A stretch of 64,000 nt of DNA from Amphiscolops sp. MND2022 (lineage: Eukaryota): positions 10,418,001 to 10,482,000 of the forward strand of contig OZ076409.1 of NCBI GenBank assembly GCA_964187785.1, in the 5' to 3' direction. Numbering within the stretch: the first letter of the stretch is position 1; the number at the start of each line of letters is the position of its first letter. The notes beneath the pieces were generated by a model. That model searched no databases. It was not told the DNA's origin and worked only from the letters and a program-made list of their open reading frames with translations. Shown here piece by piece: positions 1,633-64,000 of the stretch. Made by a program: the position numbers and the translations under genes.

Positions 1633-19016
<17,384 letters not shown>

Positions 19017-22111: not shown

Positions 22112-22586
22112 GGGCGGTGGGCGTTTGGATCGAATGAACTTGCGCGAATATGCAATCTGTCACTGGATCGAAGTAAAATGGTCAAAGAAAATGAGATCGA
22201 ATCCATGTTTTCAAATACCTAGCGTTTTCAAATAACAATGTTTTTGGCCGTCGGATATGCCCCCCATTTCCTCTAATGCCCCGCGGCCCCTTGGGGCCGC
22301 TTATGTTCCCATCTTGCTAAGCGAGGTCGAACAGGAGCAAAGACCTAGCGGGAACGGATATCGCGAAGCGATGGTAGTGGGAGCTGGTCTTTGCGACGGT
22401 GAGGGCGAGCGTGCATACACCGTATATGATCCCGTATTAGGTGGGGAAGACTACCTAAATAATTTTAAACGCTTTTAAACACTTTACAGGAGCAAAAACC
22501 TAGCAAAACCGGAAAAATTCGATCTCAAAACCATTTTCAATCTCGCTTTTCGCTCACACAAAAACTCGATCCAAAAATACCCCACC
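22112..22586. mobile_element. Mutator-like MITE carrying cassette B, inserted in the LINE 3' end
   Basis: 9-bp TSD ctctccaag (22103-22111, 22587-22595); GG..CC ends with tttggatcga TIRs. Confidence 0.8.
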
Positions 22587-22595
22587 CTCTCCAAG

Positions 22596-25500: not shown

Positions 25501-25801
25501 TCTGATCAATGTCAGATAATTTAATTTGTCTTGATGCAATGCTTTTCCTAACCCCAATAAGGACTCCACCATGACATGTGCAATCATTTGATTTAATAGA
25601 TTGGTTGGTTGATTTAGCTGGTCTGTTTCCACGGTAAATATTGAAATCAGGTAAAAATAGAGCAGTTGAAGGGATAGAATTGGTCAACCAGGTTTCAGAT
25701 AGACACACTATTTCAATTTCCTGTAATGCAAGTGCATTGGCTAAAATTTGACGTCTTTTCAGTTCAAGAATGCTACGAACATTGTATGTAATAACATGCA
25801 T
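22596..25801 (-). pseudogene. LINE ORF2 (APE endonuclease plus reverse transcriptase), frameshifted and interrupted
   Basis: YNVRS, LSETWL, GGV, GDIN; YRPVALL, DFKKAFD, GVPQGSILGPLLF, LFADDLK, KDLGV; KCG duplicated across the 23317-23818 insertion. Confidence 0.9.
23317..23818. mobile_element. Mutator-like MITE carrying cassette B, inserted in LINE ORF2
   Basis: 9-bp TSD ccacacttg (23308-23316, 23819-23827); aataagttcga-repeat TIRs. Confidence 0.82.
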
Positions 25802-25822
25802 GGTTGACTTTCTGTTGCTTAG

Positions 25823-26785
25823 TCACTCGGATTTGGAAGCTGAGTCGGCAGCTTGGCCGAACACGGTGCACCATTCATTTCCTTTGAATTGTTGTAGTTC
25901 AAGGTTGCGGATACGAATAACCCTAGCTGGGATACCGTCCAATATCAACTTTCTACGATGCTTGAGACATTCTCTTTCTTTTGATGCATCCTCAACAGTT
26001 AATTCTGGACTTAGGTAGATAGGATTTTCAAACGCAGAAAAATCCTTGAGTTTGCGTGCTGATTTTAAAAGAAGGTCTTTATCCACTGCATCCTCCAGAT
26101 AGAACAATATTGACCGCGGACGGGGTTTCCCATTCAACTGTTTCCTATCATCGTAAGGACCAATACGTTTGACCTTTGTTATCTTGCCATTATTTTCCAA
26201 GAATTGAAGAACATACTTTATAGAGTTAATGTCCGTTTTCAATCTTTCATCCGATGTTCTTTCCATGGCTTCGGGTATGCCCCTGATTCGAATCCCCAGT
26301 AAGTCATTTCGCTTTTCTTGAATTGGTACGGTAATAGTTTTTCCAGGTTTGACTGAGCGCAGTGCTTCCGTGTAACTTTTTGGTTGATCTCGTTTTAGAG
26401 AATCAATTTCTTTTTGAATTTCCTTAACTACATGAAGAGATTGAATAACATTTTCGTTATATTGCGTGAGCTTTTCGTCGAGGGAGTTTAGATCACTTTT
26501 CTGTTTCTGCTGTTCAGGTGTAAGAATACAAACATCATCCTTACGTTCGTTGGAACAATCATTGCAAACGTGTAACAAATTTCTATTTAGCTTGATGATC
26601 GTCGAGACTTCGTTCTTTGAGAATCCAGTGCAGTCAGCAGTCATGTGTAGTGTCTTCCGGCACATCACACAGCTGAATCGTTCACCATTGATTTTCTTTT
26701 CACAAACTGAACATTGATCACGTTTCGTCTTCGGAATTCCCTCGGTGTTGGCCAGGTTGATCCCCGGCACATCGGTCGTCATCAT
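25823..26785 (-). CDS. LINE ORF1p (PHD finger, coiled coil, RRM-like)
   Basis: CSVC..CVMC..H...CTG..CNDC; IRIRGIPE, RIG, PRPRSI, IYLSPELT motifs. Confidence 0.85.
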   Translation of the reverse strand: MMTTDVPGINLANTEGIPKTKRDQCSVCEKKINGERFSCVMCRKTLHMTADCTGFSKNEVSTIIKLNRNLLHVCNDCSNERKDDVCILTPEQQKQKSDLNSLDEKLTQYNENVIQSLHVVKEIQKEIDSLKRDQPKSYTEALRSVKPGKTITVPIQEKRNDLLGIRIRGIPEAMERTSDERLKTDINSIKYVLQFLENNGKITKVKRIGPYDDRKQLNGKPRPRSILFYLEDAVDKDLLLKSARKLKDFSAFENPIYLSPELTVEDASKERECLKHRRKLILDGIPARVIRIRNLELQQFKGNEWCTVFGQAADSASKSE

Positions 26786-27740
26786 AACGCAAATGAAAAC
26801 ACACTATTTAATAAGTTAATAAGTTTATCACAACAAAAATGACGAAGATCCATGATCTGATAGAGACAAAAAAAACTCTGAGAGACACCTTTCAAAAGTT
26901 GATACTGTAGAAAAACTTTTCGAAGACAATCGAAAAATGTCATTGCGTAGCTCCAGTATATGGAACATAATTGAAATAACTTTCGAAAAATGAAAAACTT
27001 CTGGATTTTCATCAAATGTTAAGTTTCTGTAGAATGATGTCGTTCGCGTGACCATCGAGCCCGTTATTTTTCAAAACATATGGCTTACGATGGCTCTCAA
27101 TGAACTCACAAGAGTATTTGTTCGTCGCCGAAGTCCTACTCAAGGTTGTTTTGTTGAAAAACTTTTTTTCCTCCATCAGATATTATGGATCTTCGTCATC
27201 AATCAAGTGCCATGTGTATCATCATGTTAAGGGGAGAAGACACACACCCGTGGTCTACGACGGAAGTAGGGAACCCCATACCAGCCACTATCCCAGTAGC
27301 AAAAAGAAACAACGGACAAACTACTCATACCAGCCACTATCCCAGTCGACCGGTAGAAATTTTTTCTAGCTGCAATCATGGAGGTTTAAGAAAAGTAGCT
27401 ATATGTAAAAAAAATTCAGTGGGGGTATTTTTGGATCGAATTTTTGTGTGAGCTAAAAGCGAGATCGGAAATGGATCGAAAGTTTTGAGTTCGAATTGTT
27501 CCGATTTTGCTCCGCAAACAGTTTAAAATATTTTAGGTACTTTTCCCCACCTAATATGGGATCATATACTATGTATGCACGCTCGCCGTCACCATCGCAA
27601 AGACCAGCTCCCTCCACGATTGCCTCGCGATCTCCGTTCCCGCTAGGTCTTTGCTCCTGTTCGATCTCGCTTAGCAAGATGGGAACATAAGCGGCCCCAA
27701 GAGACCGCGGGGCACTAGAGGAATCGGGGACATATCCGAG

Positions 27741-28312: not shown

Positions 28313-31300
28313 ATGGCAGATCAAACGCATTGTAGTAAATGCAACGGGCATCTGAGGGGCGGAGGTGTATCGTGCAACGAGTGCGGCTACATTCATATAT
28401 GATGCAGCGGTCTGGCATCCGGACGAGACCACTACGCGGGTTTCATCTGTCAAAACTGCAATCTTGCCGCCGCCCCGCAAGATGACACCAACACACCGCC
28501 CGCAGCGACGCCACAAGCCAATCCGCTTACAACTGTAGAAATAGTCCAAAACGACCCTGACACCTCCCCTAATGTCACTCCGCCCACACCCGCTGACTTC
28601 TGGACGAAAAAAACACCAACACATACTGACTTTATCAAAAAAAGCTACTCTGAAATAGTCCACTGGAAGCCCCAATTTGTCACTCTCAGCAAAAATAAAA
28701 CTGGACATTGCTTCATCGAAAGCCTCAGCATTATCTTCGATGAAGTTGCCGAAAAATCGCGAAACTCAAATGTAGCACTTTACTTCGCGATTGTAATGCC
28801 CCATCTAGTTCTGGCCCGTACGAAAGAGAAACGTGAAACATCCATCGGAAAAACCATTCAAAGAAGAATGGAAGCATGGCTTAGCTGCGAATTTGAGGCG
28901 CTCTTCAACGAAGCAAAGGCACTGCAGCTACGTATACCAAAAGTGCGGAAAACCCAAAACCCCGATGAAATGAAAAGTTTAGACATCCAAATGTCATCCG
29001 GGAAAATCTCAAATGCATTGCGGTGTCTGGATGAGTCTCAGAAAGGCAACGTCCTCTCGCTGCAAGAAAGATTGGGAAACAAAACCGTAATGCAAATCTT
29101 CAGGCGAAACACCCAAAACCGATGACATCAAAAGACAGCTACGTCACTAACAAAAATGACCACAACCTCGAACACCATCACAGTTTTTTCGACAAAATCA
29201 ACGCCTCGACAGTCCGAAAAACAGCCATGGTAACGCAAGGTAGCCACGGACCATCCGGCGTCGACGCCAACGACCGGCGCAGGTGGCTTTCACATTTCGG
29301 TCAAGCATCCACGAACCTCTGCAAGGCTCTTGCAGAATGTGCCCGGAGGCTCGCAACAGAACAAATGCATGATCTAACTCCCTACAACGCATGCCGTCTC
29401 ATACCGCTTGACAAAAACCCAGGTGTCAGACCAATCGGAGTGGGCGAAGTCATCAGACGCATAATTGGGAGGAAAATTCTTCGATGCATCGGGAACGATC
29501 TCAAGATCTTGGGCCAGAATAGGCAACTCTGCCTTGGTCAAAAATGTGGCATCGAACACGCCATTCACAGTCTACGTGAGACGTTCGAGCTGCCCGAGAC
29601 AGAAGGGCTTCTCCTGATTGACGCCAAAAACGCGTTCAATAGTCTAAATAGGGATCTGGCCCTGAAAAATATTCAGAAAACCTGTCCATCCATCACAACA
29701 GCGCTCCGAAACTCATATGGTACACCTTCAAACCTTTATGTGAATGGGAAAACTCTCTTTTCGCAAGAAGGAACTCTTCAAGGCGACCCTTTGGCTATGT
29801 CCATGTATGGCATTGCGCATCTACCGTTAATGGACCTCGTGAACGAAGAAGGAGTGCTTCAAAATTGGTATGCTGACGATAGCAATGTAGCCGGTAGCAT
29901 CGAATCGCTCCGAAATCTCTTCAAAAAACTGAAGCTCCACGGTCCCGCATTTGGATACAACATCACTAAATGTCATCTCATCACGAAAGATTCCTCCCAT
30001 GACAAAGTAAAAGAAGACCTCTTTAAAGACGAGGATGTTGAACTAGTGGGAGGACACCGTTTACTGGGGTCCGTTATTGGATCGTCCGAGGCCTGTCACG
30101 CTTTCGAGTACTCCAAACTCACTGAGTACACGAACATTGCAAACAAACTTGCGTCACATGCGGAAAAGTCACCACAGAATGTCTATGATGCATTTACAAA
30201 AGGTGTTCAACACAAACTCACCTTCCTGTCAAGAGCATCACCTGACAAGGAAAATACACTGCAAAACACCGAATCTCTCTTAACGACGAAACTGATCCCT
30301 AACATCACCGGCCATGGTCAGTTATCTATAGCAGAACGTTCTCTTTTCTCCCTACCGCTCAGCAAAGTGGGCTGAATATCCTTTCACCCGAAGACAGAAG
30401 AAACCATCTGCAGTGGTCAAAGGATGTTACTTCTCATCTAGATGAAGAGGATCTAACCACCGCTGAAGCGAAGCAACACTCAACAGTAAACATGATAAAG
30501 AAACAGAAGCAAGAAATTCAAAAAACTAATATAAAGAAGTCAAATGCAACTTGAATGACGAACAACGACACGCAGTTACACTTGTTTCGGAAAAAGGAGC
30601 ATCCAGCTGGCTAGCAGCCCTCCCACTGAAACGCTATGGTTTCACTCTTACGAAGTCTGAATTTCGGGACAGTCTCGCGCTGCGCTACGGTTGGGAGCCA
30701 AAGAATTTACCTGCCAAATGCCCATGTGGTGAACCCTTCACTGTTGCCCATTCCCTACACTGCGGAAAAGGAGGCTACACTCACATGAGACATGACGAAA
30801 TACACGATACGTTCGCAAAGATAATGAAAGACGTTTGCTTCGACGTCGAGGTGGAGCCGAAACTTCAGAGGTTATAAGGGGAATCCTTCGAAAATAAATC
30901 AACTTGCACTGCTAATGGACTCTGGGATTCACGATTCTCGAGAACGTATTTTGACGTCAAAATTTTTAACCCGCTGGCCAAGTCCTGTCCGAAAGAAGTA
31001 AAGGAAGCGTATAAAAATCATGAAACTTTGAAAAAACTGAAGTACGAACAGAGAATCCTTGATGTGGGAAACAGCTCATTCAATCCTTTTGTCTTCGCGT
31101 GTTCAGGAGGCGCAGGTCCATCAGCCTCGAAAGTTATGTCCCGACTTGCTCTGAAGATCAGCGAAAAAGGACAAGACAGCTACTCGGACGCCATAGAATA
31201 CATCAGGACGCAAATTAGTTTCGCTTTGCTACGCAGTTCCGTGCTATGCCTCAGAGGATCTCGATCTACTCCGTCAAACTGAGGATATATTTATCTCTGC

Positions 31301-40886: not shown

Positions 40887-43800
40887 TCAGTTCGCGCTGT
40901 CGAGACCTTCTCGTTCTTCCTCATTCTGATTCATCTCAAGTGTCTCTTGATTAGGTTTCTGCGACGCAAGCATTCTGTGTAACAGTATCTCGAAGATCTC
41001 AAACAATGATATAGCGCTGAGCCCCAAACACATTCCAAGAATTCCTCCGACGTTGCTGATGAAAGTTGAGAAGGTAACCAACGGAACAATTTTAACAACT
41101 CTAACTGGCTCGTCGCCCAAGCGAATAAACACGTGACTCATATGCTTCGCAATTTCTTGTTTCTTTGGGATGTCTTGAGAATCTATGCTCATGAAAACTT
41201 GCAAAAGTTCGCTTGCTTTCGTAAAACTGGAATCTGCTGTTTGAGATATGAGTTCAAGATTGCTCTTAACTATGTATTCGGTCCATTTGTGTTGTTTCTG
41301 CAAAACTTGGGTTTCCAAAAGTTTTTGATCGCATCTTTGATGACAATTTGAAGAGCATTCTATAATTTGGTCCAAAAGTTTGGTAATGTTAATTTTCCCT
41401 GTATCCATAAGACAATCCCTGTTCTGTCGTTTATGTAAGCAATCAGTCCTAGTTAGATTCCAGCCAATGAAGTTTGCGCAATCGCAATTCTGATAGTGAA
41501 TTCGGGCATAGCACATATCCACACACGAGGTCACATAGTAATCACTTTGAAAAGGCTCTCCGGTGAAAATGTAGTCCTCTTTCCCGCCCTTGTGAACACA
41601 TTTGGCTTTTTTGAATGATTGAGTTTGTTGTCGGTGTACAACTGACGCTGTTACTACCACTAGTTCATTTGGAGCCACGTGAAAACCTGTGAACAACAAG
41701 AATTGTCGTTTGGGTTTCTAGAAATCAATTTCATTTTTTGAAGTTAAAAGCTGCTTTGAAGTTGAGTTGCTTCTAGTTTTTGGCTCATGTTTGATGTATA
41801 CACATTTGATCAAACAAAATGACACTTTCCCGAATAACACCACTAGGATACCAAAAAGATCTGTGCACCAAGGCTTTTTTTAAAGAGCGAAAATATAATT
41901 TGAAAAATTCATCAACTTTACTTCAACTAGTAACTAATAACCTAATAACGGTATCCTTGGATTTCTTGACATCGTACAAGCGTTTTGGAATAGAATTGTA
42001 CAAATTCTTCATAACTTTTTGGTCGATATTGTTGCAAATTTCATGGACTTTTCCCCAACTTCATAATTTCTCAGTTTTTCTCACCACTGACCGCATATCC
42101 TCAAGGGTAAACAAGATAGGGCTTTAAGGAGGCCATTGCAGAACGTCAGAAACTAATCTTCAACTGTGTGAGGTTTTGTGCGCAGGGGCCATACCTTGCT
42201 GGAAAATAAGTCCAGGAAGGTTCAATTTCTGGTGGAAAACATCCAGAATTTGACATAGTCCGTGCTTTTCATCCTCTCAGCGCATTTAACTAGCATTTTC
42301 CGGCCAATGAATCTGACTGCACCACAGAAAATGAAATATCATCAGTCAGCTACCGTGTTTCGGTTATTTTTCTTTTTTTTTGAAAAAAAACGCGCACCAT
42401 TCCGTCACTGTATAACTGCATTTTAGTCTCCTGAGAGAAAACAACGTTTTGCCAGTAACTGAGCGGCGTCTTCTACCTTTTTTGACACCATTCCGGTCTC
42501 GAACATGGCAAAGAAAGCTGTAAAAAGTAACTTGAATCTTCTTCAAACAAGTTTTTGGGTTTTTACGGACGTCACGGATGAGTTTTTTCTGACTTTTTTT
42601 GACATATTAGTTGGTCGTCCTGTGTGCTTTGCAGCAAGGTAAAAATCGTTTTCCAAGTAACGTTTGTTTTCGAGTTTTGCAGTTAATCGGTTTTTCAAAT
42701 TAAGTTTTGTTTTTGAATTTCTCAACAGAAATAGCTCAAATTTGTTAGTGTCCCAATTTGGCAAACGAGAAATTGATCCAACGGTTTGACCATTGACAAG
42801 CTGAGAATCGGAAATGGAACTGAACAAATGAATAGAAAAAACATTTAGCTTAAACATGTCACGCTCAACATTAATCTCAGAAATTTGATTTGAATTTCAA
42901 GTTTACAGAGATTTTTGGTACCCCAATGTATTTCACTTATGTCGTAACCCACACTCTTTTGTTGAAATAAATGAGTAGACCATATTTAAAATAGTGTAAG
43001 TAATGGACATTAGAATTCGATTTTCCCCCAAACTATGTTATTTTTTCGAAGATATTTGTACTATGACATTCAATTGTTAATCTTCAGCAAGCTTGTTCAC
43101 CTCTTAGCAACCTATCACAATACCCAAATTTCCGCTACTCCAAAAAAGAAAAAATTTAGAATTTGCAAAAGCTTCCCCTGTGAAGGTGGTGTTTTCAGTC
43201 GGCGCCTTTTCTTTTAAGGAAAAAAGCCCGACTATTACAGTGGCTAGTTTTTTTTCTTTTTTTTTCGTCAGACCACAGAGCTCATCGCGTATGTACCACT
43301 TTTTACAGAAACTGATAAGACTACTCAGGCCAAGTCAGGCCAATGGAAACTTAGTGCAAAGGGTCCCCCTTTCATTTTTTACCTTTTTTACGTAACCTAC
43401 AAAACCGGAAGAGACCAAAGGGTTCCCCCTTTCAATTTTTTTTCGGCACTGTGTGAATTTTTTTTTTCGAAAAAAGGTCTCAAAAGAGTTCCCTCTTCGA
43501 GTTTTTTGATATTTTGCAACAGAATGTATGTTAATGAATCCCAAAAGGTCCCCCCTTTTCATTTTTCGGCACTATGCGACATTTTCGAAGTTTTTTTCAA
43601 AAAAAAATTTCAAAAAAAATTCAAATTTTGTTCCCAGTCGGGAAACAGTGATTTTCCAGTCATATCTAGCATGAAAGGCACACTTTGGGTGTCTCGAAAG
43701 TGTTTTCAAAGCTTTTCATGAATACGTCCTGAGCATATTTAGAAAACTTTGCGCTTCTTGAGCCTTAGATATAGCGCCGACTTTAGACGTTCCCGTCTTG

Positions 43801-46098: not shown

Positions 46099-46212
46099 AT
46101 GATCGGCCTGGAATCATATATGGTCCAGAGTATGATCGGCCTGGAATCATATATGGTCCAGAGTATGATCGGCCTGGAATCATATATGGTCCAGAGTATG
46201 GTCAGCCTGGAA
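46099..46212. repeat. 33-bp minisatellite, ~3.5 copies, with an inverted partial copy near 46029
   Basis: atgatcggcctggaatcatatatggtccagagt repeated head to tail. Confidence 0.85.
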
Positions 46213-46618
46213 TAATAAATTTTTGTTCCAAACGTGTGTTGACGTGATATGCAACCCAAACAAAAATTTTCAAATATTGAGAACAGCCAGCTTTATAGGC
46301 TAATGCAGCCACATTCGACCTTTTGTATCTGCGAACGATACATTGCAGGTGAGAACTCCGTTAAGCTCTAAGCGGAGTTAAAGACAAACTATAGTACTTC
46401 AATTTGTTCTCAGCCACTCCTTAGTTAATAACTAACTCTTTTGTTATCGGTGTACCCACTTTGCAGTGTTGTTCTCAATTATTTCGAGAAAAGTTACAAA
46501 TATTTCAGCAAAAGCTGCCAAAAACTGATGATTGCAACCTTGTTTTCAATTTGGTGATTGTATTGGACCGGTGGTTGATGAAGATCTTGTAATTTCATCA
46601 ATGTATGCGTTGATTGAC

Positions 46619-48147: not shown

Positions 48148-51100
48148 TCATTGGGCAGCAGACCTGTTTCTGCTACAAGGAGAAGTTTCCTTAGGGGGTG
48201 AGGCATCGCTCGTGGAGACGCGTCTGGTAGGCGAAGGTACACTGGTCTCCGCCTCGGTGTCAATGGTTAATTGTCCAATGGGGTCAGCTAGTGCCGCATT
48301 GGGCGTAAGCTCTGCCGTGTGCTCACCGGAAGGACTAGGGGCTACAGGCATAGCTGTCTCAACTGTAACCTCATCTTCCAAGGATGCAGCTTCCACGGTG
48401 AGGGTTTGCTCCAAGGACATGGCCATAACAGGGGCAGCGGTGCTTTGAGATGGTGTGGGAGCATAGCGCTGAGCACGCTCTTCTTCAGCGCGATGGTGAG
48501 CTGCTAAAGCTACACGTTTTGAGATCCATCCGCTTTGCTTCCAAAGCGCACACGCCTTCTTCCATGTTTCGAAATTTGTTACTTCTAGGTGGAGACATTC
48601 GTCATCCCACTCGGCGCGCATTTCTGCGCCCAGCACTTGATTCACAATATCCAACAACGTCAGTGGCGTATCTTCCGACATTGTCATGCGGCCTTGCGGA
48701 CGCCAGACCGGCTCATACTGTATCGGGGCCATCCGGCGGGAAAGATTGCGGTCACGCATCTGCGCAGCGACACTAAGCCATTGTGGCACGTTCGCACAGT
48801 CTGTGTGGCGAAGCTGGTGGTCCAAAAGCTCCTGGCCGCGCGCGATTGGGCGAGCACGGGGATACCCCACGGGCTCTTTCCAGTAGCGATTGGGAACTTT
48901 GATGAATTTGAACTTATAATCCGAGCAAACTGTGGGACTTGCATCCAGACTAGAGTTGATGGTTTTCTTTATAAAGTCCACGGTCCAGGGAAACCGGAAG
49001 GGTTGTCCGTGGAGGTCCATTGGTGCGTTGTACCAGTTGACTGGTCCAAACTCACGAGGAAGCACTGCGGTTTTGCGCGCGCGGGCACCAATGACGCCCA
49101 TCATATTTTCTTCAGCTTGAAGCTCAGTTTTGATGGTCGTGTATGCCTGAGGCATCTCACCGCTCAATGTTTCTTGAATCATGCACTCATATGACATGGG
49201 TGGACTTCCTTGCAAGTAGGTAAATATCGAGACAGTTGCTACTTGAATTGCCATCGAGACGGGTTTGGTGGGATAGCGCAGTACACCCAAAGCTCCAAAG
49301 ATAGGAATCAGTACCGGGGCGATGACAGGGACCAGGTCTTCCACTTCAGCGAGTGTCAAGTCTGCCAATTGATGTGGCGGTGGAAAGCCGGCATTCTCGC
49401 GCGGCAGTTGCGCGTCAGGGTGATGAAGGGGTTGAGCTTGGTCAACTCCTACGAATAAACCTGATGCATAGATCAGAGTCGAGTATAACCAGTGTTGCAC
49501 CGAAGCTCTCATGCGGAACAGGTGGTCGGTGTAGTTGTGCCCATTCTGCAAGAATAGCACCTCTCCGAAACCAAGCAAGCTGGTCAACTTTCCTTGTGCG
49601 AGGACCAGGTAACGTGTAGAATTCTAGAATCCCTCCAGTAGTGATCAAATCTACAAGAATGGCTAGGGGACCAGCCACGAATTTGGTGGGGCCCAAGGCC
49701 AATGCAAGAGCCAGTACCTCATAGACCGTGGTTCGCTGCAGAAAGTCGGTGAGTTTTTTCAACTGGTCATCCGTCAGACAAAATTCGGCGGCAATTACAT
49801 GCAAATGCCAGCCTAAGCCAAAACTTGTTAGCAGCGCCGGAAAGGACGCAGACAATCCTCTGGCTGTCCTTTCCGAGGTAACGGAACCAATCGGTCCTGA
49901 TACCAGTCACCATACGTGACCTCACGCGCCTGGACCAGTTCGTCGAGGGTAACTGCTTCTTGCGCTACCAGGTGCCTCACACCCAGTGGCATTTTGATGA
50001 TTTCAGTATTGTTGGCAAACTGGATCTGAGGAATCGTTCGCTCTATCTCGCGGTTAAGTGGCCGTCTGCCGATTTGATCCCAAACGGCAGCTAGATCCGC
50101 CTTAAGTGTGTTTGGGTGGGCTTCGCCCACCAACCAGTTGTACCGGCGCATATTCTCGCGCTCTTTGAGTGTGGCCTCTGGACGAGTCCGATTGCCATTC
50201 TCATCGAAGGTTAGCGTGCCTAGACGCATTCCATAGTCGTAGTAGATTGCATCGTCCGAAGTGAGCTGTGCATTGCCTCCCTTTTCCACTGGCTGCAATA
50301 AGCGTGAGATCGCTGCCAGGTACGCGTGTGCTGACAGTGCGGCGGGGCGCAAGTCCGCCTTGCCGACGTGCAAGTTGGGCGCGCACAAGTAAAACTCGAT
50401 GCTACGAGCAAGGCACACCTCACTTGGCATGTAAACGAATTGTTGGAACATCCCTCCCCAGTACACCATACCTGGAGGTGAAACAAACAGGGCTGGCACT
50501 CCCAACTGAGTGCGGAGCTTCTCTGCCGTACGCTCCATTGCGGTGGCATATTGGTGCAACAACCTCGATACTTCATTTCTGGCGGGCGTCACAGGTGGTC
50601 ATCACGCGTAGTAGACGCGGCAGGTCTTGCAACTGGCCTTCACAAGCCATATGGTCCATTAAATTGGAGAAAATAATCATCCGCGGAGGTGGCTCCTTCT
50701 GAGGTCCTTCCAGCTCCGGAGCGAACATGGCAATGGCTCTTTCGGCCATCTCTGGCAGTCGTGACAAGGGCATGGTTACTACCAGGACATCCGGAACCAA
50801 GTTGTCAAACGGAAGGTTGCATGCGACCGTTGAATCCATCATCACGCAGTAGCGCGCATTCTTTGAAATGGGTTGGATGGCTCTGAGACTTAGAGGATAC
50901 TGTCCGTGGGTTTTCCAGGTTTCGCCTTGTTGAAATGAGTGTCTGGCGCTGCATTGCACATGCAAGTCGTTCATCATGGGTCCCAAATAGTTGTCATTAG
51001 CAGTAGTAAGTCTCTGAACTACCCGTTGCTCCCATACTGGCTCACCCTTATCAGCGTCAAAGGCTCGCAAGGTCCTCGACACATGAGCTACAATGGATAG

Positions 51101-52432
51101 CTTCTTCAGCTGAGCTTGGTCGGCGCGTGAGGATGGAACCCGCTGTCGATCACGAAATTGCCGCTCATCTAGCCGTGGGGCAACCTGCCATATGCGATTG
51201 GCATCGCGCGTCATCACAGTTCCTGCAACATTATCAGACTGGGGAAAATAAGGCGGTGGTGTTGGTTTCGTAGATCTGGAAGCTGAGGAGGTCACTGATG
51301 TGCTCGAGCGTTCGGCACTGGCTGAAGAACTAGGACTTGGCGCATATCGTTCTATAACTTCGTTCATTGCCATTTGGGGCATGGGTACGCCACGGTAGCC
51401 CACTCTCGTTAGCTCTTGTATAACTACTGAACGCAGCGCATGCTGGCGTTTATCCGGGGGAGGGCGACTTGTTGGACTATCGGTGGTACTGACTGTTGGT
51501 GATTGCCCAAGCGGCGAGGTTCGTTTACGACCCAGCTCTTCATCCGAGACGGGTGACAATCCCGAGATGGGTGAGGGGGCTCTAGTCCTAGTAGTGCTAG
51601 GGCCAGGTGTATTTGAACTGGTGCCTTGACCAGGTGCTTCGAGTAGGTTTTGCAGGCCTGGAAGTTGCTTGGACATAGTCTTGACGAACTCTCTTGACTC
51701 TGGATAGTTCGCCACTGCTTGGAGGGCTTGAATGACTGCCTGCTCACTTGGCGTTCTATGTGACATGTCTGGTGCAGTGATACTGCTGCGAGCACATGAA
51801 GGTGCAGAAGACTGCACTGACTGCACTCTAGCGCTAGACATTGGAGAGGAGCCCTCGGGCTCCTGCTGGGGTGTTGTGCTTAATACCATGTGTGACGCAT
51901 TGGCCGCTGGAGCACTGGCATAATGTGCCATTTGAGCTGCAGGGGGCATCACGGCATGCACATTGGGCAGGTATGCTGCTTGACTCGTCGATTGTATTGA
52001 TGGTGTCTGTGACTGGATCACCAGATGTGCTGGTGGGAGAGGTTGCGGCATCGGTACGTTGGCCATTGGGATCTGCAACGTTGCTTCCTGCTCAATTACA
52101 GTGAGCACGCTGGGACCTCGCACCACGGAAGAGCGATCATCAAGGAAGGGGTGGGTCAAATCGTAGCCGTCGCAAGTGCCGTTTTTACAGGTCATTGTAC
52201 GCTTATAGCCAGCCACGTCGGCGACTATAGAAACTGCCAAGCTAGGCAGCGTGGGCTGTGTCTCCAGTTGTGCCAAAAGGGCAGTGATCCCTGCAATGGC
52301 AGCTGGCGATATGCCATTGCGCAGCCTTTCTTCAATGTACTGCACTTGCCTTACACGTTGTATTCGGGCAACGTCCTGATTGGGTTGGGTCGAGGCAAGC
52401 ATTGCTGCAGGGGCAGTGTGATGGTAAGCCAT
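48148..52432 (-). pseudogene. Gypsy accessory ORF3 (~1400 aa if frameshifts are repaired); Pro/Ser-rich N-half, SGNH-like middle region
   Basis: Overlapping ORFs 50573..52432, 49828..50592, 49442..49855 and 48148..49587. Confidence 0.7.
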
Positions 52433-52698: not shown

Positions 52699-54292
52699 TT
52701 AACACCTATCTCTATGCCGAGTATAGACACGTACACGCGATTGTGTAGCACTACTGTGAATGTTCGTGTCCACGAACAAATCCACTAGTACCTTGTACAG
52801 GTTGATCAGGGAGAATACTGGCCTTTCGAGATCCAGTATCGGAAAATGGACTCGGGCAATACCCCTGTCCTCTAGCCATGCCGTTAATTGTCGCATGCAT
52901 AACAGGAAATCATCTGCTATCAGGGGCGCGCTGATTCGCACGGATGATTGGCAAGTGTATGGTCTGGGTGGGTTTATTGGTGATTGCAGGGGTCAGGGTT
53001 AGAATTTCTCCTACCCGGGGGCGTAGTGAGAATACTTGCTCCTTGCCGCATTTCTGCAACACGTAGCGCAGTGCTGCCGAGCTGGTTTCTAAATCCGCCG
53101 GGCACGCCAGGGCTAAATGCCTTTCGACTTGCAAAAAGTCAGTGGTGTCATAGGAAATGTATTCCAACATGTTCGGGCGTAGACTGCCGGGATACACTAT
53201 TTCCCGACCAGGTCCATTATCAGGGGGCAAGCATACGCGTGGGGTGCGACCCTGTATTGCGGCTAAATCCTGCCACACCGAGCGCGGCAACGCTTGGTTA
53301 TCCACACTTGCTCGGACCCACGTATCCAGCGTGTTCAATGCTGCTCTCACTTGCAGGGGCTCCTCAAAAGTATGAATCCATTCGTCCAATAGACGAATGC
53401 GGGGGTAGTTGGTGAAGCACGTTATGATTAGCTCCAACCACCAGCGAAATTTTACTTTCCCACGATACCAGTCAATAAGGTGGAAGCACAAGATTAGGTG
53501 TCCCGTTGTGGAAGTTCTCAAACTTTCCAGGCATAGCAGCAAATGCAGTGGTTCCACTAACGCATCTTTACGTGGTGCAGTTACTAACAGCCACCAGTGC
53601 AGGGCGGGGCTATACACGCCACCTTGTTCTACCTCGACTCCGTATCGGCCCAGCAGCAGGTCAGCAGTGATGCAACTGGCCATTTCCACTGGGTCCCGCT
53701 CAAAGTTGAACGGACCAAACACGATGTTAGGGGGCACTGGGGGTACCACGGTTGCCAGCGTGAATTCTAGGCCTTTGCCATCACTTGTCCATTCCTTAAA
53801 TCGAGGACATGGCGCCTTCGCAACGCCCGGTACGGCGATTCGCTGCAAGATGGTTTCTGCTGAATAATTCTCGGTTCGCTCTAATCCAGCGAAGGTCTTT
53901 TCCGCTCGCACCACGATACGATGAACCAGTTCAGCATTGTGTCGTCCCTCCAGGGGAACTCCCCGGGCTCCAATGGGAACCTCCCGGTTCTCGTGCACGG
54001 CTAGCACGCATACGCAGTCGCGCAAGCCATAGGTGCCACATTTGTATCTGGGCTGCCGTTTGTGTCTCAATTGGTATCTACTTTGGGATCCCGTTTGGGT
54101 GTCTGAAATTGGCGCGTGGACTTTGGACGCTGCCTTGTACGAAGGTTTACGTGGACGGGGTGCCCTTGTCGCTCTTGTCTTTTTCCGAGGTCTCCCCTTC
54201 CCCTTTTTAACAGAAGGAGCAGTGGGTGGTTTGGGCAATGGTGGTGGGGCTTTGGTCCGCTGAGGGTGTAGGCGGACGAGAAGTGGGTGCAC
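52699..54292 (-). pseudogene. Post-integrase extension: AT-hook-like motif plus two divergent TARG1/OARD1-like macrodomains
   Basis: KGRPRKK; MASCITADLLLG..WLLVT..LLLCLESL..ELIITCF; ISYDTTDF..LALACPADL..VGEI..FLLCMRQL..GIARVHFP..LVDLFVDTNI. Confidence 0.65.
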
Positions 54293-54849
54293 TGGTATCT
54301 TCGGCGTGATTGGGCCAAAGAGGGTAATTACTGAGGTAGTCGGTAAGAGAAGGATGCGTCAGCAGCGGAGCAGAGGTACCCGAAGGGGATAGCTCCGGTG
54401 GATTGTCTGACGGTGATAACTGTGGTGAGGGTGAGCGCCTAGGCTCATGATCGGAGAATAACTGCGGAAGGCAGTCGAGCATAGATGTGTCTGACAAAAG
54501 AGCAGGCACTGCGGGGGCTTCGATGATGTCTGCAGATTGTGTCTGCACCAGTTGTGGGGAATGGGTAGGAATGGGGAGCATCGCGTCTGACGTCTCATCG
54601 TCGGTCTCAGACGTGGAATAATCGAACTGTTGGTAATGCTGCCGGGTTCCTCCCGCGCGCAGCTTAGTGCGCAATCTAGTGTCCATCCAATGGCGTTGCC
54701 ATTAGAGGGTGGCGACACATCCGAGGCCTCTGAAAGTAATTGTTCAGAGTGATAGGAGGGCTTGGAGCAATCATCATCAATAGGTTCTACGGAGCGCTCG
54801 GGCTCAGGATCCATTACCACGGCGATGTCACCGGTATCTAATGCGTTGG

Positions 54850-57800
54850 CGGCGAACTCCAGGGGGCCACTATTATGAGGTTTCAAACGTTCAAAGTGGA
54901 CCTTTTGTCTTGTGTCCAGGATGTATACACGCCCATCCTGGAGAGTATGAAAAATGCGATGCGGGCCACGCCAAGCTCGCATCAGTTTCAGTGAACGCTT
55001 TTGTGAAACGTATCGACAAAAGCCCCGACCAAGTCGCCAGGTTTATAGGCTTTGGCCTGTATTGCGCGGTCGTACTTTAATTTTTGCCGCAGCTGAGCTT
55101 GGTGCGTGTTTCTACGCACCAAGTCGTGGATCTCTTGGAGACGTGCCAATACATGATCCACGTAAGCGTCGTGTGTGGGGAAGGACCGTGAGGCAAACTC
55201 GGGATACAGGTACGTAAGGGGTATCGCTTTTCCGGTGCCCCTGGTCAACATGTAGGGTGAGAACCCTGTGGTTGCGTGACGTGTGGAGTTATACGCACCT
55301 AGGACTTCGTCCAGGTGGCGATCCCAATCACGCATTCGTCGCGAACAGAAAACACGCAACAAAGTAAGAGCGTGCGATTCTGGCGTTCCACTAGACCTTG
55401 TGTGCGGGGGTGAACAGCAGTGGAAGTCACCTTCGTGACTTGTGAGGCTTTCATAAACTCATTAGAGACTTCCGCTGTTAAATTCGGAGCATTGTCCGAT
55501 TGCATCCGGGTAGGCGTGCCATGACTGGCAAACCATTTTTGCAAGAGCAATCGCGAGGTGGTAATTGCGTCATACTCGTCATGACTTCAAGGGACTGCCT
55601 CGGCAAATTTAGAAAAGTGGTCAATGATGACTAGGATACCCGTGTTGCCATCATCGGTGGGGCAAAGCTTCATATGATTGTACTGGACCAACTCATTGAA
55701 GTATCCGCTTTGAATATTCTTGAGATGGAACCGAACGTCCCCAGGTTTGTCTCGAACCTGCTGGCACGTGAGACACTGGCTCACGTACTCGCCCACAGTG
55801 CGGCGAATGCCAGGCCAGGTGTGGCGTTCCTGTATTCGCGCCACGACTTTGCCGATGCCTTGGTGACCCATAGCATTGTGGGCCTGGAAGAAAATGTCAT
55901 GTTGATATAACTGAGGCATCACAATCATGCAAAGGCGTTCATGAAGTGGACGTTGGGTTGAGGGGTTTTTCACACAGAGCACGCCATTGGATATTCGGAA
56001 AAGTAGCTCCTTCTTTTGCTTGAAATAGTTCCGAGCCCCCGGTACGTCCCCGGGAAATATATCCTGATCGATGTTTTCCCCATTCACCAGCCTTTTGAGT
56101 ACAAAGACATGCACGTCTCGATTCTGTGCGAGGAGTAGGTCCTTGATGCCATGAACCGTGTGGGTATGCTCGTGCAGCTCGGTACCCACACTGTGAACAG
56201 CCAGTGCGGCTTGCCTGATGTGACCTGGGACATTTTGCATGGTCATTCCGTCAGTGTTTGCTAGGTCAAAGGTGGTACGCGAGGGCACGTTGGTAATGTG
56301 CGTGGGCAGCAGATAATCATGATGAGCTTCTTCAGTCACATCAATCCAGTCCTCTGGATAGTCGGGATAGAAGTCTTCGTGAGCATGAAGGATTGGGGGT
56401 GGCGGTTGAGGCAAAGGTGCTTCCATAGCTTTCTGCCGTTGGTCTCGCCAATATCAAGAGGTGCGGGCTGCAGGTTTTTGAGATGTTCGGGTAGCCCAGG
56501 ATGGTTCAGGATGATTCGACCTTGTACATCGAACCAGGGCGTTGTAGGCAGCTGTTCGTATTCATCTTGAGATAAGAATATCCAGCGCTCTGCTACCGGG
56601 GGCAGCTTCTCGAGTTGTTTCTCCCTCCATCGTTAGTCATTTGTTCGTTTGGACAATCCATCGGCATTGCGATGTTGTGTTCGGGGTCGATGTTCGACCC
56701 GGAAATGGTATTTTTCCAGCGTCATGTTCCACCTACCAATCAGGGCTTGGTCGGTAGAATACGTTTTGAGCCACGAGAGGGTCTGACGTGAACTTACGCG
56801 GGCAAAGGTAGCTGTGATTCTTCACAATGAAGTGATAAGCAGCGTACATCTCCAATTTAGGCGCTCCGTACTTGGCTTGCGTAGCGTTGAGCTTCTTGCT
56901 ACCATAGAGTATTGGACGTAAACGTCGCTCTCCAGGTGGGCCTTGCCACTGGTGGAGGATGCCAGAGATGGCGACAGCACTAGCATCGGTATCCAGTACA
57001 AATTCGCCTTCGGAATCCGGTTGCGCCAGCGTTGTGGCATCGAAGAGCGCCTTTTTTATTTCATTGAAGGCAAGCTGTTGTTCGGATCCCCAAGCAAAGG
57101 TAGCGTTGAGGCCAGTGATGGCATGCAAGGGGGCCACCAGTTTGGCATGCCAGGGAATGAACTTGCGGTAATAATTGGCAAAACATAGGAAGCTTTGCAT
57201 TTCTGTCTTGTTACGCGGAACTTCCCAGTCGCGCAGCTTCGCAAAGGCCTTTATCACTACGCGACCGAAGTACTTGATTTCGGACTTCATGAAATCGCAC
57301 TTAGCAACTCGCATCTTGAAGCCAGCCTCGCGCAAGCAATCGAAAACCTCACGTAGACGTGTCATGTGGTCTTCCACGGTTTCTGTGGCGATGACTAAAT
57401 CATCTATGTAGGCCATTACCATGCTACCTTCACGATTTACGATGTTGCGTAGCGCTCGTGCTATTGCTCTTTGGAAGGTGGCAGAGGCATTGCACATGCC
57501 AAAGGACATGCGTCTCCAATCGAACAACCCTAACTCACATGCAAAGGCGGTTTTTTGGCGGTCAGCTTTCCGAACCGGAATTTGCCAGAATGCCCTTTAC
57601 GGTGATCTCATCCAAAGGGCGGAAGTCACAGCAGAAGCGTAACTCGCCGTTCTTTTTCTTCACCATCACAATTCCGCTTGCCCAAGGGGACAGGGAAGGT
57701 TGGGAAGGGAAAGTTGCGCACTTCTTGATTAACCCGTTCGGCTTTTTTAGGGGAAATGCGCCTTGCACCCTCGCGGTGAGGTATGGCGCCTGGTTTTACC

Positions 57801-59508
57801 TCCACTGGATACTTGGCTATAGTGCTTCGACCAATGTCAGCCTTATGTTTCATGAACAAATCATCAAACTCTGTGAGAATGTTCTCAAGCGCTGTACAGG
57901 CAGCTGGGCCCCAGAGGTCCTGGACCTCTTTAAGCTGTGACTCAGGTCCCGGTATGGGAGCCACAATCTCCGGGCGATCCGAGAGACCTGCTTCCGTTGG
58001 CTCAGTTGAAGACAAAAATTCAAATTCGGACGAAGAGGTTAATTGAGAATCAGTACTATAGTTCATTTTCTCATAAACTCTATTTACAAACGAAAGATGG
58101 TCGTTATTGACCTCAGTTTTGAGGTTATCCGGCGTTTGCTGAGGTAGACCAAGGAGACCGGTACTACATGGCCCTAGCCGAGTTCCCTTCCGCACCCGTT
58201 GAGGGTTACTTGTTAGATTCATCAGGCTGACGAACACCAAGCCTGACTCGCTGACAGTGGCGACGCTGTCCTCTAAAAACACAACATTATGCAACGACGC
58301 GTCAGCAATGGCTGCGTTCAAGGCTACACTTTGAAAGATCAATGGTTCAAGAGTGTCAGTGATGAGCTTAGCTTTAACCACTGTGCGCTCGAAAGGCTGT
58401 AGGACTAAATCGCTGTCCAAGGCAACCGGGGTAGCTAACGAAGTATCACCTACCTGTGCGTGTGCATGATGCAAAACGGGCTTAACGGGTGCTCGCACAA
58501 CGATCTTCATGGAAGTGAGATCCACCAGGACTTGATAGGAACGGAGGAAGTTCCGGCCTAGCAGAAAGTCCTCCACACCCATTGCATCGTCCACTACGAC
58601 AAAGTTGGTTTCAAGTTCGTATCCTCCCAAGTGGAAACGAATCTGCTCGGGCTAGACCAAAGGTCTTTATTGTTTTCCATTGGCAGCGTACAAGTCGATT
58701 TGATAGGGCTTTGGGACAGTACCGGTCCGAGCAGCCACTTGAAGGCGGAGAACGTCAATATCGATACGCCTGAACCGGTGTCCACCAGTCCACGTAGAGG
58801 GATAGGTACCGCATGGGGCACTACGAAAGAAACAACAAACGACGCACGCTCGTCTATACGTGCCTCACCAGTGGGTTCCTGGTGGTTGATGATATAGCAC
58901 TACAGTTCTTGGGGACCCAGACATATGCCAGGTGGGAACACATCCACCACCACACAGGCTTCGAACTTTACATCCACACCATCCATAGTGGCACAGATCG
59001 GCACTGGGGAATACGTCGTCAGGGTTTCAGAATCTCCAGGGGCGTACCATTCTTTGGGACGGGGCAACTCAACTCGTCTATAGAGGAGGGACAGTTCAAC
59101 CCAGAGCTTCGCCAGAGTTAACGTTGGCCTGCGCAGTTGTTCCGCGGCTAACATCAGGTGAATCGAGATCAACGTCCGTCCTTGTGGGTCGAACGTGGTA
59201 GGCTCTAAGCAAGTTTGGACTTGCTTGGCGCCGCAAGTAATTGTTAGCGGGGTGTAGAAGGCTGGCGGTTCCGCCGGATGTAGCATTAATACGCGATCAT
59301 CCTCTATGGGTACTGTGTGCGCAGCGACGCCAGCCGACTCGACCTCCACCCATCGGCTGTAGGCGAATTTGTCATTGGGTTTCGGGGAGTGGGAGTGCTC
59401 ACCACATTGCACATCCGCATGATCAAAAACTCCACAGTTGGTGCATTGACGAATTCCGGGATAGCTTTCCAGAACACCATCAGTCACGTCTTCGGCAGTG
59501 ACTTTCAC
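54850..59508 (-). pseudogene. Gypsy pol (protease, RT, RNase H, integrase), frameshifted
   Basis: LVDTGS..LLGRNFL; SPWASGIVMVKKKNGELRFCCDFRPL; FGMCNASATFQR; YIDD; LDTDASAVAISGIL; H..MGH..C..C; IDHFSKF; SDNAPN; GLVERQN; WRGPHRI. Confidence 0.92.
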
Positions 59509-59544: not shown

Positions 59545-61915
59545 TTAGTCTCGACCAAAATGCCCAGTTTGGCCACAATTAAAGCAAGCACCCAAGGGTA
59601 AACGCACAACAGGTTGTGCCACTGCTTGATTCGGCGGGGCATTGCTCGCCGGGGGGGGAGGCATCGCCCCTTGAGGTAGCACCATCTTGTTGGGAGGTAG
59701 TGGTGCGAAAGGATGAGGCCTTGACCTCATGGCATATCGAGGGTCAAAGGGCGCCGACCTTGGTCGAGTACGCTGCAGTTGCCGTGTCGTAAATCGCAAG
59801 GATTCGACAGTGGGAGGCTCGGTGACCGTGGATTCGGACGCATAGATAATGGAGAGCTCCCTCCGTAGGGCTGGGTCACGAACGCCTTCGATAAAGCGCT
59901 GCAAGATTTCATAACGTTTAGTCGTGACGGACTCACCAGGGAAGCCTTGGCTTCGCAGCCCCTCCAATGCATCTAAATACTGCATCCAATCTTCCCTGTC
60001 GGATTGCTGTCGCGTTGCAAAGGCCTGACGCACTTGCATGCGATTACCTCCCGTTCCGAATCGACTAGCTAACAAGTCAAAGACTTTTTCCGGTTTGTCT
60101 CTTTCAGACTCGGCCTTGTTGATGATGTAGTTTCTGGCTTCACCTTCTAGGTGCCCAATGATGCTCCATGCTTTGTCATCGGGGGTGGCTTTGGCCTGAG
60201 TGCGTTGGAGGTAGCGACGCATAACTAGGATCCAACCATCAATGGAACCCTCCTTTGAACCTCGGTAGACACTGGGCCTAGCCTGCGTCGGGTCACGCCC
60301 GGCCAGCAATGGGGCTAATTCTTTGGACATGGCCTTGGAAATTGCCGCGGTGAACCGTAACTGCTATTGGGAGACTACTTCTCCTTCCTCACTAGGGGCG
60401 GGAGAATTGTCTCGACTTCCCCTGGTGGCTTGCATGGACAGTTCACCATTTACGTCGTTCTCTTACGAGTGCCACTGGCGCAAGGGTCACCAGTGGGGAC
60501 TCCCTCACTCGCAGTGAGGAACATTGAGGTGATACCTGCTGTTCCGCTTCTGGCAGTGGTGTAAACCTCGTCCTCGGCACTGCTATCGCGTGAGCCATCC
60601 GTTGCCTTGGTATCAGTTAGATCTACGGTTGATGAGGTAGTCGTCATGTGATCCACTGCTCGATTTTGGGTGCGAGTAAATGTTGGTGCCGGCGGTAGCG
60701 ATACGCTACTAAGTGGGTTGGGTGCGCACACGCGCACTTTGTTGGTCTTCTTGCCTGTCGGTGGCGGTTAAGATAATTTGATAATTTGGGTTCAGACTTG
60801 GGGCTCGTTTTCAACGTGATCAGCTGATTGGGAGTGCGCATAGGCACGGTCTTGCTGGTGGATGCGATGGGTTCGGCGGCCTTGGGTTGCTTATCGACAG
60901 GTGCCGCCGTGCGGGACGCAGCGCTCAGGGTATGCATCTGGTTGTTAAGCTCCGCCATCTGGACTTCCATGCGCAGTTCGCGTTGGAGAAGCATGTCTTT
61001 CATCTCTTCCAGACGATACCCCAAGGCGTCAACCTTGGCTGCATGTACTGTTGTCTGTTGGGTGGCAGCCCTCAGGCTATCCTTTACCGAGCTCTGCATA
61101 GCCTCCAGTTCCGCAGTGATAGCTTGGTGTTGTTAATTGCACTCAACGCGGGTGTCGGCTAAACGTGCCAAGGCCCGCTCGGCTTCGGCTTCCGCCTTGA
61201 GCATCGCGGTCCTTGCTGCTGCTGCCTCCTCAACGGCTCTGTACGCCGAGGAACGTCGTGAAGAGGTGCTCGACGTGGTGCCATCGCGATAAGAAGAGGC
61301 ACTGTCACGGGCCAATTCTTCTTGCACGCACAATGTGGGAGGGCGTGTCTTCTGTTTGCCAGCGCTTTTGGCTCGGCTTGCCTCGAGGCGGTATTTAGCA
61401 TAGTTCATGCCACCTACGTAGGTCATATTCTCTAAGACCGCCGCAGTGTCGTTACTGGCTGGACTATCATCGTCTCGGGGTGCTCTCGAGCACCCATCAC
61501 GCGTAAGGGTCATCTGCGCTGCCGTTTGATTTGAGTTGGGCTAGGACCCCGCGGTTTGAGGCGACACCAATTGACCCCGATTGTCTTGGATCCACTGTCC
61601 CGTGCGGATAAGCTCATTGGATACGGGCGAATCCCCACGATTGAGAGTCATGGCATTCTGCTCCTCTCGTCGCTGTTGATCGGCAGTTACGCAATCACTC
61701 ATTGCTTCTTAAAAGGAAGAACCGGTTACCGAGGAATCCACAGAGGACCACGCCGTTAGGCTCAGTTCGCTAGTAGTGCTAGAGTCCTCTCGTTGGATTG
61801 AGCTCCTTTCTTGCGCATCATCCATGTCCACTGCATTGCTGGTACTGGACTCGCTAGTCCTCGACACCCCGCGCGTGAGCAGCTTGGCAATGGCCGCTAC
61901 ACCGGTCCAGAACAT
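59545..61915 (-). pseudogene. Gypsy gag with stops and frameshifts
   Basis: Coiled coil, capsid-like HLEGEARNY..LASRFG..RFIEGV, CFNCGQTGH zinc knuckle; ATG at 61915. Confidence 0.85.
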
Positions 61916-63349: not shown

Positions 63350-64000
63350 GAGTAAATGTTGGTGCCGGCGGTAGCGATACGCTACTAAGTGGGTTGGGTG
63401 CGCACACGCGCACTTTGTTGGTCTTCTTGCCTGTCGGTGGCGGTTAAGATAATTTGGGTTCAGACTTAGGGCTCGTTTTCAACGTGATCAGCTGATTGGG
63501 AGTGCCTATAGGCACGGTCTTGCTGGTGGATGCGTTGGGTTCGGCGGCCTTGGGTTACTTATCGACAGGTGCCGCCGTGCGGGACGCAACGCTCAGGGTA
63601 TGCATCTGGTTGTTAAGCTCCGCCATCTGGACTTCCATGCGCAGTTCGCGTTGGAGGAGCATGTCTTTCATCTCTTCCAGACAATACCTCAAGGCGTCAA
63701 CCTTGGCTGCATGCACTATTGTCTGTTGGGTGGCAGCCCTCAGGCTATCCTTTACCGAGCTCTGCATAGCCTCCAGTTCCGCAGTGATAGCTTGGTGTTA
63801 TTCATTGCACTCAACGCGGGTGTCGGCTAAACGTGCCAAGGCCCGCTGGGCTTCGGCTTCCGCCTTGGGCATCGCGGTCCTTGCTGCTGCTGCCTCCTCA
63901 ACGGCTCTGTACGCCGCGGAACGTCGTGAAGAGGTGCTCGACGTGGTGCCATCGCGATAAGAAGAGGCACTGTCACGGGCCAATTCTTCTTGCACGCACA
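63350..64000 (-). repeat. Second copy of gag segment 60675-61331, running off the window
   Basis: About 16 substitutions and one 9-bp indel in ~650 bp by hand count. Confidence 0.9.

Follow-up and report, generated by a model that had tools for sequence, protein, structure and literature searches.

Why would a Gypsy retrotransposon end its Pol protein in two domains resembling the human ADP-ribose eraser TARG1, and what could such domains do with altered ligand pockets? The question is raised by one decayed element in a 64,000-nucleotide stretch of DNA (hereafter the window, meaning the whole stretch analysed), in which a first-pass annotation had noticed two tandem TARG1/OARD1-like blocks downstream of an integrase.

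A decayed Gypsy element in animal DNA

The window is animal DNA, as evidenced by minus-strand exons of two host genes, an amiloride-sensitive sodium channel (40887-41717, PF00858 E 6e-21) and the WD40 region of BCAS3 (18284-18625, E 5e-12), which lie beside LINE fragments. The minus strand between about 62000 and 48100 has a GC content of 51-55%, compared with 34-47% in the rest of the window, and is occupied by a decayed Gypsy element interrupted by numerous stops and frameshifts. Its Gypsy/Ty3 affiliation is indicated by a gag with a CCHC knuckle, followed by the order protease (PR), reverse transcriptase (RT), RNase H (RH) and integrase (IN). No paired LTRs were seen, in that no repeat pair links the two ends of the element within the 64-kb window.

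All parts of the element lie on the minus strand. The gag is fragmented (59545..61540; Pfam zf-CCHC E 2.5e-5, PNMA E 0.004), with the zinc knuckle at about 59548-59589, and is followed by a frameshifted protease region and spacer ahead of the RT (57595..59286), located by tblastn of the related proteins P0004 and P0006, the latter of which matches Pfam gag-asp_proteas at residues 9-96. The RT and RNase H (56471..57596; RVT_1 E 1.8e-23, RT_RNaseH_2 E 1.9e-22) contain a deletion and breaks, and the next stretch (54704..56453), interrupted by stops and frameshifts, comprises a spacer and an integrase with H2C2 zinc finger, core and C-terminal domain (Integrase_H2C2 E 5e-16, rve weak), 62-75% identical to P0006. 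In addition, a second gag 5' piece at 63350-64000, 96% identical to the one at 60674-61332, breaks off at 63350, which suggests nesting or a partial tandem duplication. An AT-richer stretch (63349-61900) lies between the gag pieces.

The element also has a second long ORF (48160..52369), present here in four pieces with 40-56% identity to the proteins P0255-P0257. In relatives it is a single protein of 1196-1435 aa, belonging to a cluster of 491 members, and its C-terminal half looks folded. It matched nothing in Pfam or PDB, and the idea that it encodes an SGNH hydrolase found no support in these searches. Elsewhere, the window contains a LINE (22537-26803, minus strand) that comprises a Cys-rich ORF1, an endonuclease and an RT, and a second non-LTR element with an RT (E 3e-9) and a Cys/His-rich C-terminal region (28403-31282, plus strand), which we presume may be of the restriction-like endonuclease type. 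Other features are an element whose inverted ends measure 138 nt and whose internal repeat recurs at a spacing of about 904 nt (19035-21248), long nested inverted repeats (11903-18117), and tandem repeats of 183 bp (118-850) and 33 bp (46099-46220).

Two predicted macrodomains at the end of Pol

The ORF and the motifs quoted in the first-pass annotation were located where it had placed them, the ORF running from stop to stop at 52910..54358 on the minus strand. Behind the integrase, the Pol continues with a low-complexity, acidic, Pro/Ser-rich linker (54200..54700; 29-42% identity between lineages) and an AT-hook-like GRP motif, KGRPRKK (54199-54179), which precedes the macrodomains as described. 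It is followed by a feature absent from that description, a Cys4 motif (C-x2-C-x3-C-x-C, 54043-54008), which is a putative zinc site and has lost one Cys in the window copy. The first macrodomain (D1, 53381..53737), the connector (53165..53380) and the second macrodomain (D2, 52713..53164) complete the Pol, with the D1 motif MASCITADLL starting at 53683 and the D2 motifs ISYDTTDFL and LVDLFVDTNI starting at 53158 and lying at 52788-52759, respectively. The frameshift reported in D2 is present, but there are two (near 52925 and near 52757) rather than one, and the final strand of D2 is read in a third frame (52754-52713). Likewise, the domains do lie downstream of the integrase but not directly, as D1 starts about 400 residues past the integrase C-terminal domain. 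Ahead of D1 is a conserved extension of 60 residues (53738-53914), a folded beta/alpha segment with strands and a helix in both predicted models, outside the region covered by structural matches.

Searches of Pfam, PDB and the ESM Atlas with the window ORF as a single sequence returned no match, so relatives were needed to detect the fold. The Pfam matches of the 71 alignment members included no macro family, but the 71-row profile, searched against 177,635 PDB sequences, gave five matches at E <=10, all of them human TARG1 (E 0.004-0.006) and all falling in the C-terminal half of D2. Structure prediction extended this result to both domains. The window's own D1 region, modelled alone, reached a pLDDT of 86.6, and model residues 61-179 (about 53737-53381) matched TARG1 over the whole domain (Z 12.6, rmsd 3.0, 117 aligned), with further matches to BT1257 (Z 11.8), DarG (Z 11.7) and Poa1p (Z 10.7); the top eight Foldseek rows were all TARG1 (E 3.9e-5). 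For P0006, which is 52% identical to the window across ORF 52910..54358, the C-terminal model (pLDDT 79, pTM 0.58) predicted two helices and a flexible stretch in the connector (pLDDT <50 at residues 227-256), and its D2 part only was matched to TARG1 (Z 15.2, rmsd 4.1, 134 aligned; Foldseek E 1e-6) and DarG (Z 14.7, rmsd 2.8, 135 aligned), as well as to BT1257 (Z 12.2) and Poa1p (Z 10.4). In the Atlas, the neighbours of one relative's D2 were phage proteins together with a Macro cluster (0.90-0.92).

Human TARG1 (OARD1, C6orf130; PDB 4J5R, 2LGR) is accordingly the best fold match of both domains and the only protein in PDB hit by the family profile, and the macrodomains nearest to D1 and D2 are those of the ALC1-like class, namely TARG1, DarG, SCO6735/BT1257 and Poa1p. 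The D1 profile had no match among PDB sequences, so the assignment of D1 draws on its predicted fold and on its match to D2 (probability 89, score 40.3, compared with 13.1 for a reversed control and <=17.1 for 60 block shuffles). The same D1 profile gave only 4-8 against canonical TARG1-like domains, versus 86 against the D2 of L001, a sister-lineage locus considered below. Taken together, D1 and D2 are predicted to share the macrodomain fold of the TARG1/DarG (ALC1-like) class; the proposal of two tandem TARG1-class macrodomains thus withstood the suggested structural comparison with TARG1, DarG and Poa1p, in which a compact macrodomain fold was recovered for both models.

Fusion to Pol and conservation among relatives

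At E <=0.001, the 50%-identity representatives included 222 relatives of the region, and 11 long relatives were found among 3893 candidates. In-frame fusion to Pol, which had been left to be checked, was confirmed in several of them. P0006 (cluster of 1094 members) reads PR-RT-RH-IN-D1-D2 in one frame, and P0168 is a single 2966-aa ORF with the order Gag-PR-RT-RH-IN-linker-AT-hook-Cys4-D1-D2. Among 257 proteins, 45 had both domains nearly complete, 11 of these with the integrase in the same ORF, in a set that was retrieved with the domains as query and cannot give the share of copies lacking them. In most relatives, the Pol ends 5-19 residues past D2. Among the 14 other members listed for the P0006 cluster, four had both domains and ten had neither.

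The arrangement of the module is well kept. Of the 52 proteins that extend at least 261 aa ahead of D1, the GRP hook precedes D1 in 50 and the Cys4 motif in 48; moreover, the spacing between the D1 and D2 profile hits is 71-74 aa in 46 of 46, and frames stay open through both domains across lineages at 42-48% identity. Comparison of P0168 with P0234 gave identities of 83% for RT, 67% for integrase, 43% for D1, 45% for D2 and 33% for the linker, so that, judged by sequence, D1 and D2 appear to be kept but fast-evolving and only modestly better conserved than the linker. Both domains are near neutral or acidic, with a net charge of -8 to +4, a crude measure. As a query, the D1-D2 region gave no hit in metagenome contigs (0 of 40 pattern matches), and a search of viral contigs with the integrase alignment was likewise negative (0 of 68).

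The ligand pocket of D1 and D2

Pocket residues were counted in the 45 proteins with both domains nearly complete (seven clusters at 70%), using TARG1 numbering from the PDB chain; an offset of 6 recovers the G43, I44, K84, G123 and D125 of the literature. Besides belonging to a retrotransposon Pol, D1 and D2 differ from TARG1 in being only 10-16% identical to it and in the replacement of Lys84, Asp125 and both glycine loops. In D2, the Lys84 position (Lys80 of DarG) is Arg in 45/45, Gly121 is Asp in 45/45, Gly123 is Glu in 44/45, Leu124 is Arg in 45/45, and Asp125 is never Asp; the Asp20-equivalent is kept in 45/45. The first loop of D2 has Ser at Gly41 in 45/45 and never Gly at Gly43, in a register uncertain by about one residue, two alignments of L001 placing it differently. 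In D1, all 45 proteins have Ala, Ser or Val at the Lys84 position, Asp at Gly121, Tyr or His at Gly123 and Gly at Asp125, and 44 have Arg at Leu124; most of the first glycine loop and the next helix are deleted in the alignment. Asp125, Gly121 and Gly123 are thus retained in neither domain (0/45), and a single Lys was found at the Lys84 position among 32 fragments. Because the new residues are invariant, the site looks rebuilt rather than eroded.

Lys84 and Asp125 form the catalytic dyad of TARG1, yet SCO6735 is active without both of these residues and needs its loop glycine (PMC9411070), so the missing Lys and Asp alone are no proof of inactivity. G43E, I44E and G123E each abolish ADP-ribose binding and catalysis of TARG1, while RNA binding remains intact in G123E and G43E (PMC5928194), and the Glu at Gly123 of D2 is the same binding-null change. 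D1 and D2 are therefore probably not canonical TARG1 hydrolases, a conclusion much surer than any single function, and they may have lost ADP-ribose binding altogether. This agrees with the earlier suspicion that the ligand loops are altered and the domains non-catalytic, the TARG1 catalytic residues and glycines being replaced in all 45 proteins.

A canonical domain in a sister lineage

An integrase-based scan yielded at least 26 loci from 599 pattern matches, and at least four of them carry a canonical TARG1-like domain after the integrase and an acidic linker: L001 (1530-1976), L002 (2066-2512), L003 (2776-3240) and L005 (about 1380-1750). The canonical domain of L002 matched TARG1 at E 4.6e-22, an independent test given that the canonical-profile matches to L001 and L002 are circular, and it also matched 12 phage records at 29-33% identity; by these similarities the donor could be either animal or phage/bacterial. 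Pfam gave no Macro hit on the L002 domain (2066-2512). Lys84, Asp125, Gly123 and the first glycine loop each occur in three of the four canonical copies among the loci listed: L001 and L003 have all four features but in-frame stops, L002 is uninterrupted with Arg at Gly123, and L005 is decayed. In all three pairs among L001-L003, the canonical domain has a pN of 0.20-0.27 against a saturated pS of 0.81-0.89, which argues for purifying selection on it; the pN of the integrase is 0.08-0.10.

L001 additionally ends in an altered D2 (3225-3674; D2 profile E 1e-32, TARG1 E 5e-7), which is 32% identical to the D2 of the window's lineage and has the Arg, Asp and Arg in common with it; no D1 was seen between its canonical domain and this D2. 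The sequences of L006 and L004 stop short of where such an arrangement could be judged. In an integrase tree of 16 rows, the sister lineage and the window's lineage are joined at 100/99. In a macrodomain tree of 26 rows, which carries a long-branch warning, canonical and phage domains are split from all D1 and D2 at 100/100. A canonical domain was not found in the window or in the relatives' proteins, where the best canonical-profile matches were D2 segments, and D1 looks like a duplicate of an already altered D2.

The simplest history, unrooted as it is, would run from capture through duplication to loss. An ancestor of this Gypsy clade would have captured a TARG1-like ADP-ribose hydrolase domain behind its integrase; after duplication, the copy at the Pol end would have lost the canonical active site and fixed an Arg/Asp/Glu/Arg set instead, becoming D2. 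Loss of the canonical domain and duplication of D2 to give the more reduced D1 would then have followed in the window's lineage.

Possible functions of the module

The outcome would be a C-terminal module of AT-hook, Cys4, D1 and D2 on a long flexible linker. Its AT-hook and Cys4 may grip DNA, its pseudo-macrodomains may bind a host protein or a chromatin feature, and the whole may tether the integrase or its DNA complex in the manner of the chromodomains of chromoviruses. That a captured eraser became a non-catalytic adaptor on Pol, tethering the integrase to chromatin or a host protein, is our preferred reading, for which we consider the chances evenly poised. The near-neutral to acidic charge is easier to reconcile with a protein partner than with general RNA binding. 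The protease may cleave the 400-residue linker, in which case tethering would lose its logic; moreover, the invariant charged residues at the old pocket, with the Asp20-equivalent of D2, could form a new active site, and the small margin by which D1 and D2 exceed the linker in conservation, the long-branch warning and the uncertain first-loop register also weigh on this reading.

Such a new site is the substance of a rather unlikely reading, in which D2 is a re-tooled reader or hydrolase of ADP-ribose or a nucleotide, its Arg, Asp and Arg forming a new pocket that counters or reads host ADP-ribosylation. The equivalents of Asp20, Lys84 (Arg), Gly121 (Asp) and Leu124 (Arg) are indeed invariant in 45/45, the Arg, Asp and Arg recur in the distant D2 of L001, and SCO6735 works without the catalytic dyad (PMC9411070). 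However, both glycine loops are filled by larger or acidic residues, D1 lacks the first loop, the Glu at Gly123 is binding-null in TARG1 (PMC5928194), and the matching change impairs SCO6735 (PMC9411070). The suggestion of the first-pass annotation that the module counters ADP-ribosylation by hydrolysis is unlikely for D1 and D2 but accords with the sister lineage's canonical domain; its alternative, chromatin targeting, would correspond to the tethering reading.

Binding of RNA or structured nucleic acid by the D1-D2 pair, to assist the element's translation, packaging or reverse transcription, appears improbable. The SARS-unique domain (SUD) is a precedent, comprising two tandem macrodomains after a canonical one that bind G-quadruplexes and not ADP-ribose (PMC2674928); SUD chains are among the fold matches here (Z 6.6-7.7), and TARG1-G123E retains RNA binding (PMC5928194). 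Against this, SUD and TARG1 rely on basic patches, and the net charge of D1 and D2, a crude measure, is mostly neutral to acidic. It is likewise improbable that the pseudo-macrodomains act apart from the integrase as decoys or inhibitors of a host defence protein such as a PARP or a silencing factor: evolution faster than that of the enzymes, surfaces that are not basic and the sister lineage's canonical eraser would suit such a role, but the conserved DNA-binding-type motifs ahead of D1 suggest DNA or chromatin as the target. That the pair is no more than a neutral, functionless remnant of a captured gene is very improbable, for even if the window copy is itself a pseudogene, fold, spacing, invariant residues and open frames persist between lineages at 42-48% identity.

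Relation to known systems

Ray-finned fish have been described to harbour epsilon-like endogenous retroviruses with macro-domain ORFs (Basta et al. 2009, cited in PMC4977317), which resemble the present case in placing a macrodomain on an LTR retroelement. Those elements are Retroviridae with an additional ORF (PMC4977317), whereas here the terminus of a Gypsy Pol carries two altered copies. Similar to D1-D2, SUD-N and SUD-M of coronavirus nsp3 are tandem macrodomain folds that are unrecognisable by sequence, lack the glycine motif and sit in a polyprotein whose kin have a canonical macrodomain, but they belong to another macrodomain class and to a virus, are lysine-rich and bind G-quadruplexes, making this an analogy and not kinship (PMC2674928). 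Chromoviruses (MAGGY and kin) likewise have an accessory domain at the Gypsy Pol C-terminus after the integrase, and their chromodomains steer integration (bioRxiv 10.1101/2021.11.30.470311; PMC9289625). By comparison, the macro fold seen here is unrelated to the chromodomain and follows a linker of about 400 aa, and a targeting role would be by analogy; no Chromo hit was obtained from Pfam in 17 window ORFs or five long relatives. Burro of planarians and an orchid Gypsy with AlkB have also fixed captured host-like domains and extra ORFs, but with other cargo, and "macro" occurs 0 times in the main text of either paper. The idea of an ADP-ribose hydrolase in Burro elements finds no support in the available text of PMC6431247.

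No macrodomain in a Gypsy Pol was found in full-text searches of the literature, where subscription papers, Repbase reports and supplements could hold prior art; the available portions of PMC4245714, PMC7729036 and PMC6431247 make no mention of retrotransposon macrodomains. As even the canonical copy escaped Pfam, domains of this kind may be widespread but unannotated, and Pfam-based surveys can miss the class. The NCBI Poa1p-like macrodomain model may match certain polyproteins of invertebrate retrotransposons, in which case databases already show the canonical domain and what is new is the rebuilt tandem pair.

Implications

Captured domains in LTR elements point to host systems that the elements have to beat or can exploit, and TARG1 strips ADP-ribose off both DNA and protein (PMC8501950). 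It is conceivable, if unlikely, that ADP-ribose is an animal defence mark on retrotransposon cDNA or proteins, that the present clade of Gypsy elements acquired a TARG1-type eraser on its integrase to strip the mark, one that is canonical to this day in the sister lineage, and that spare copies became a new class of pseudo-macrodomains, which use an Arg/Asp/Arg pocket of their own to read a chromatin mark or block defence, thereby steering or protecting integration. A TARG1-type domain behind the integrase, both canonical and rebuilt within one clade, makes ADP-ribosylation of retrotransposons testable. Moreover, the canonical domain, the D2 of L001, D2 and D1 form a natural series leading from enzyme to pseudoenzyme. 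Should the module steer integration, it would be a targeting device unlike the chromodomain.
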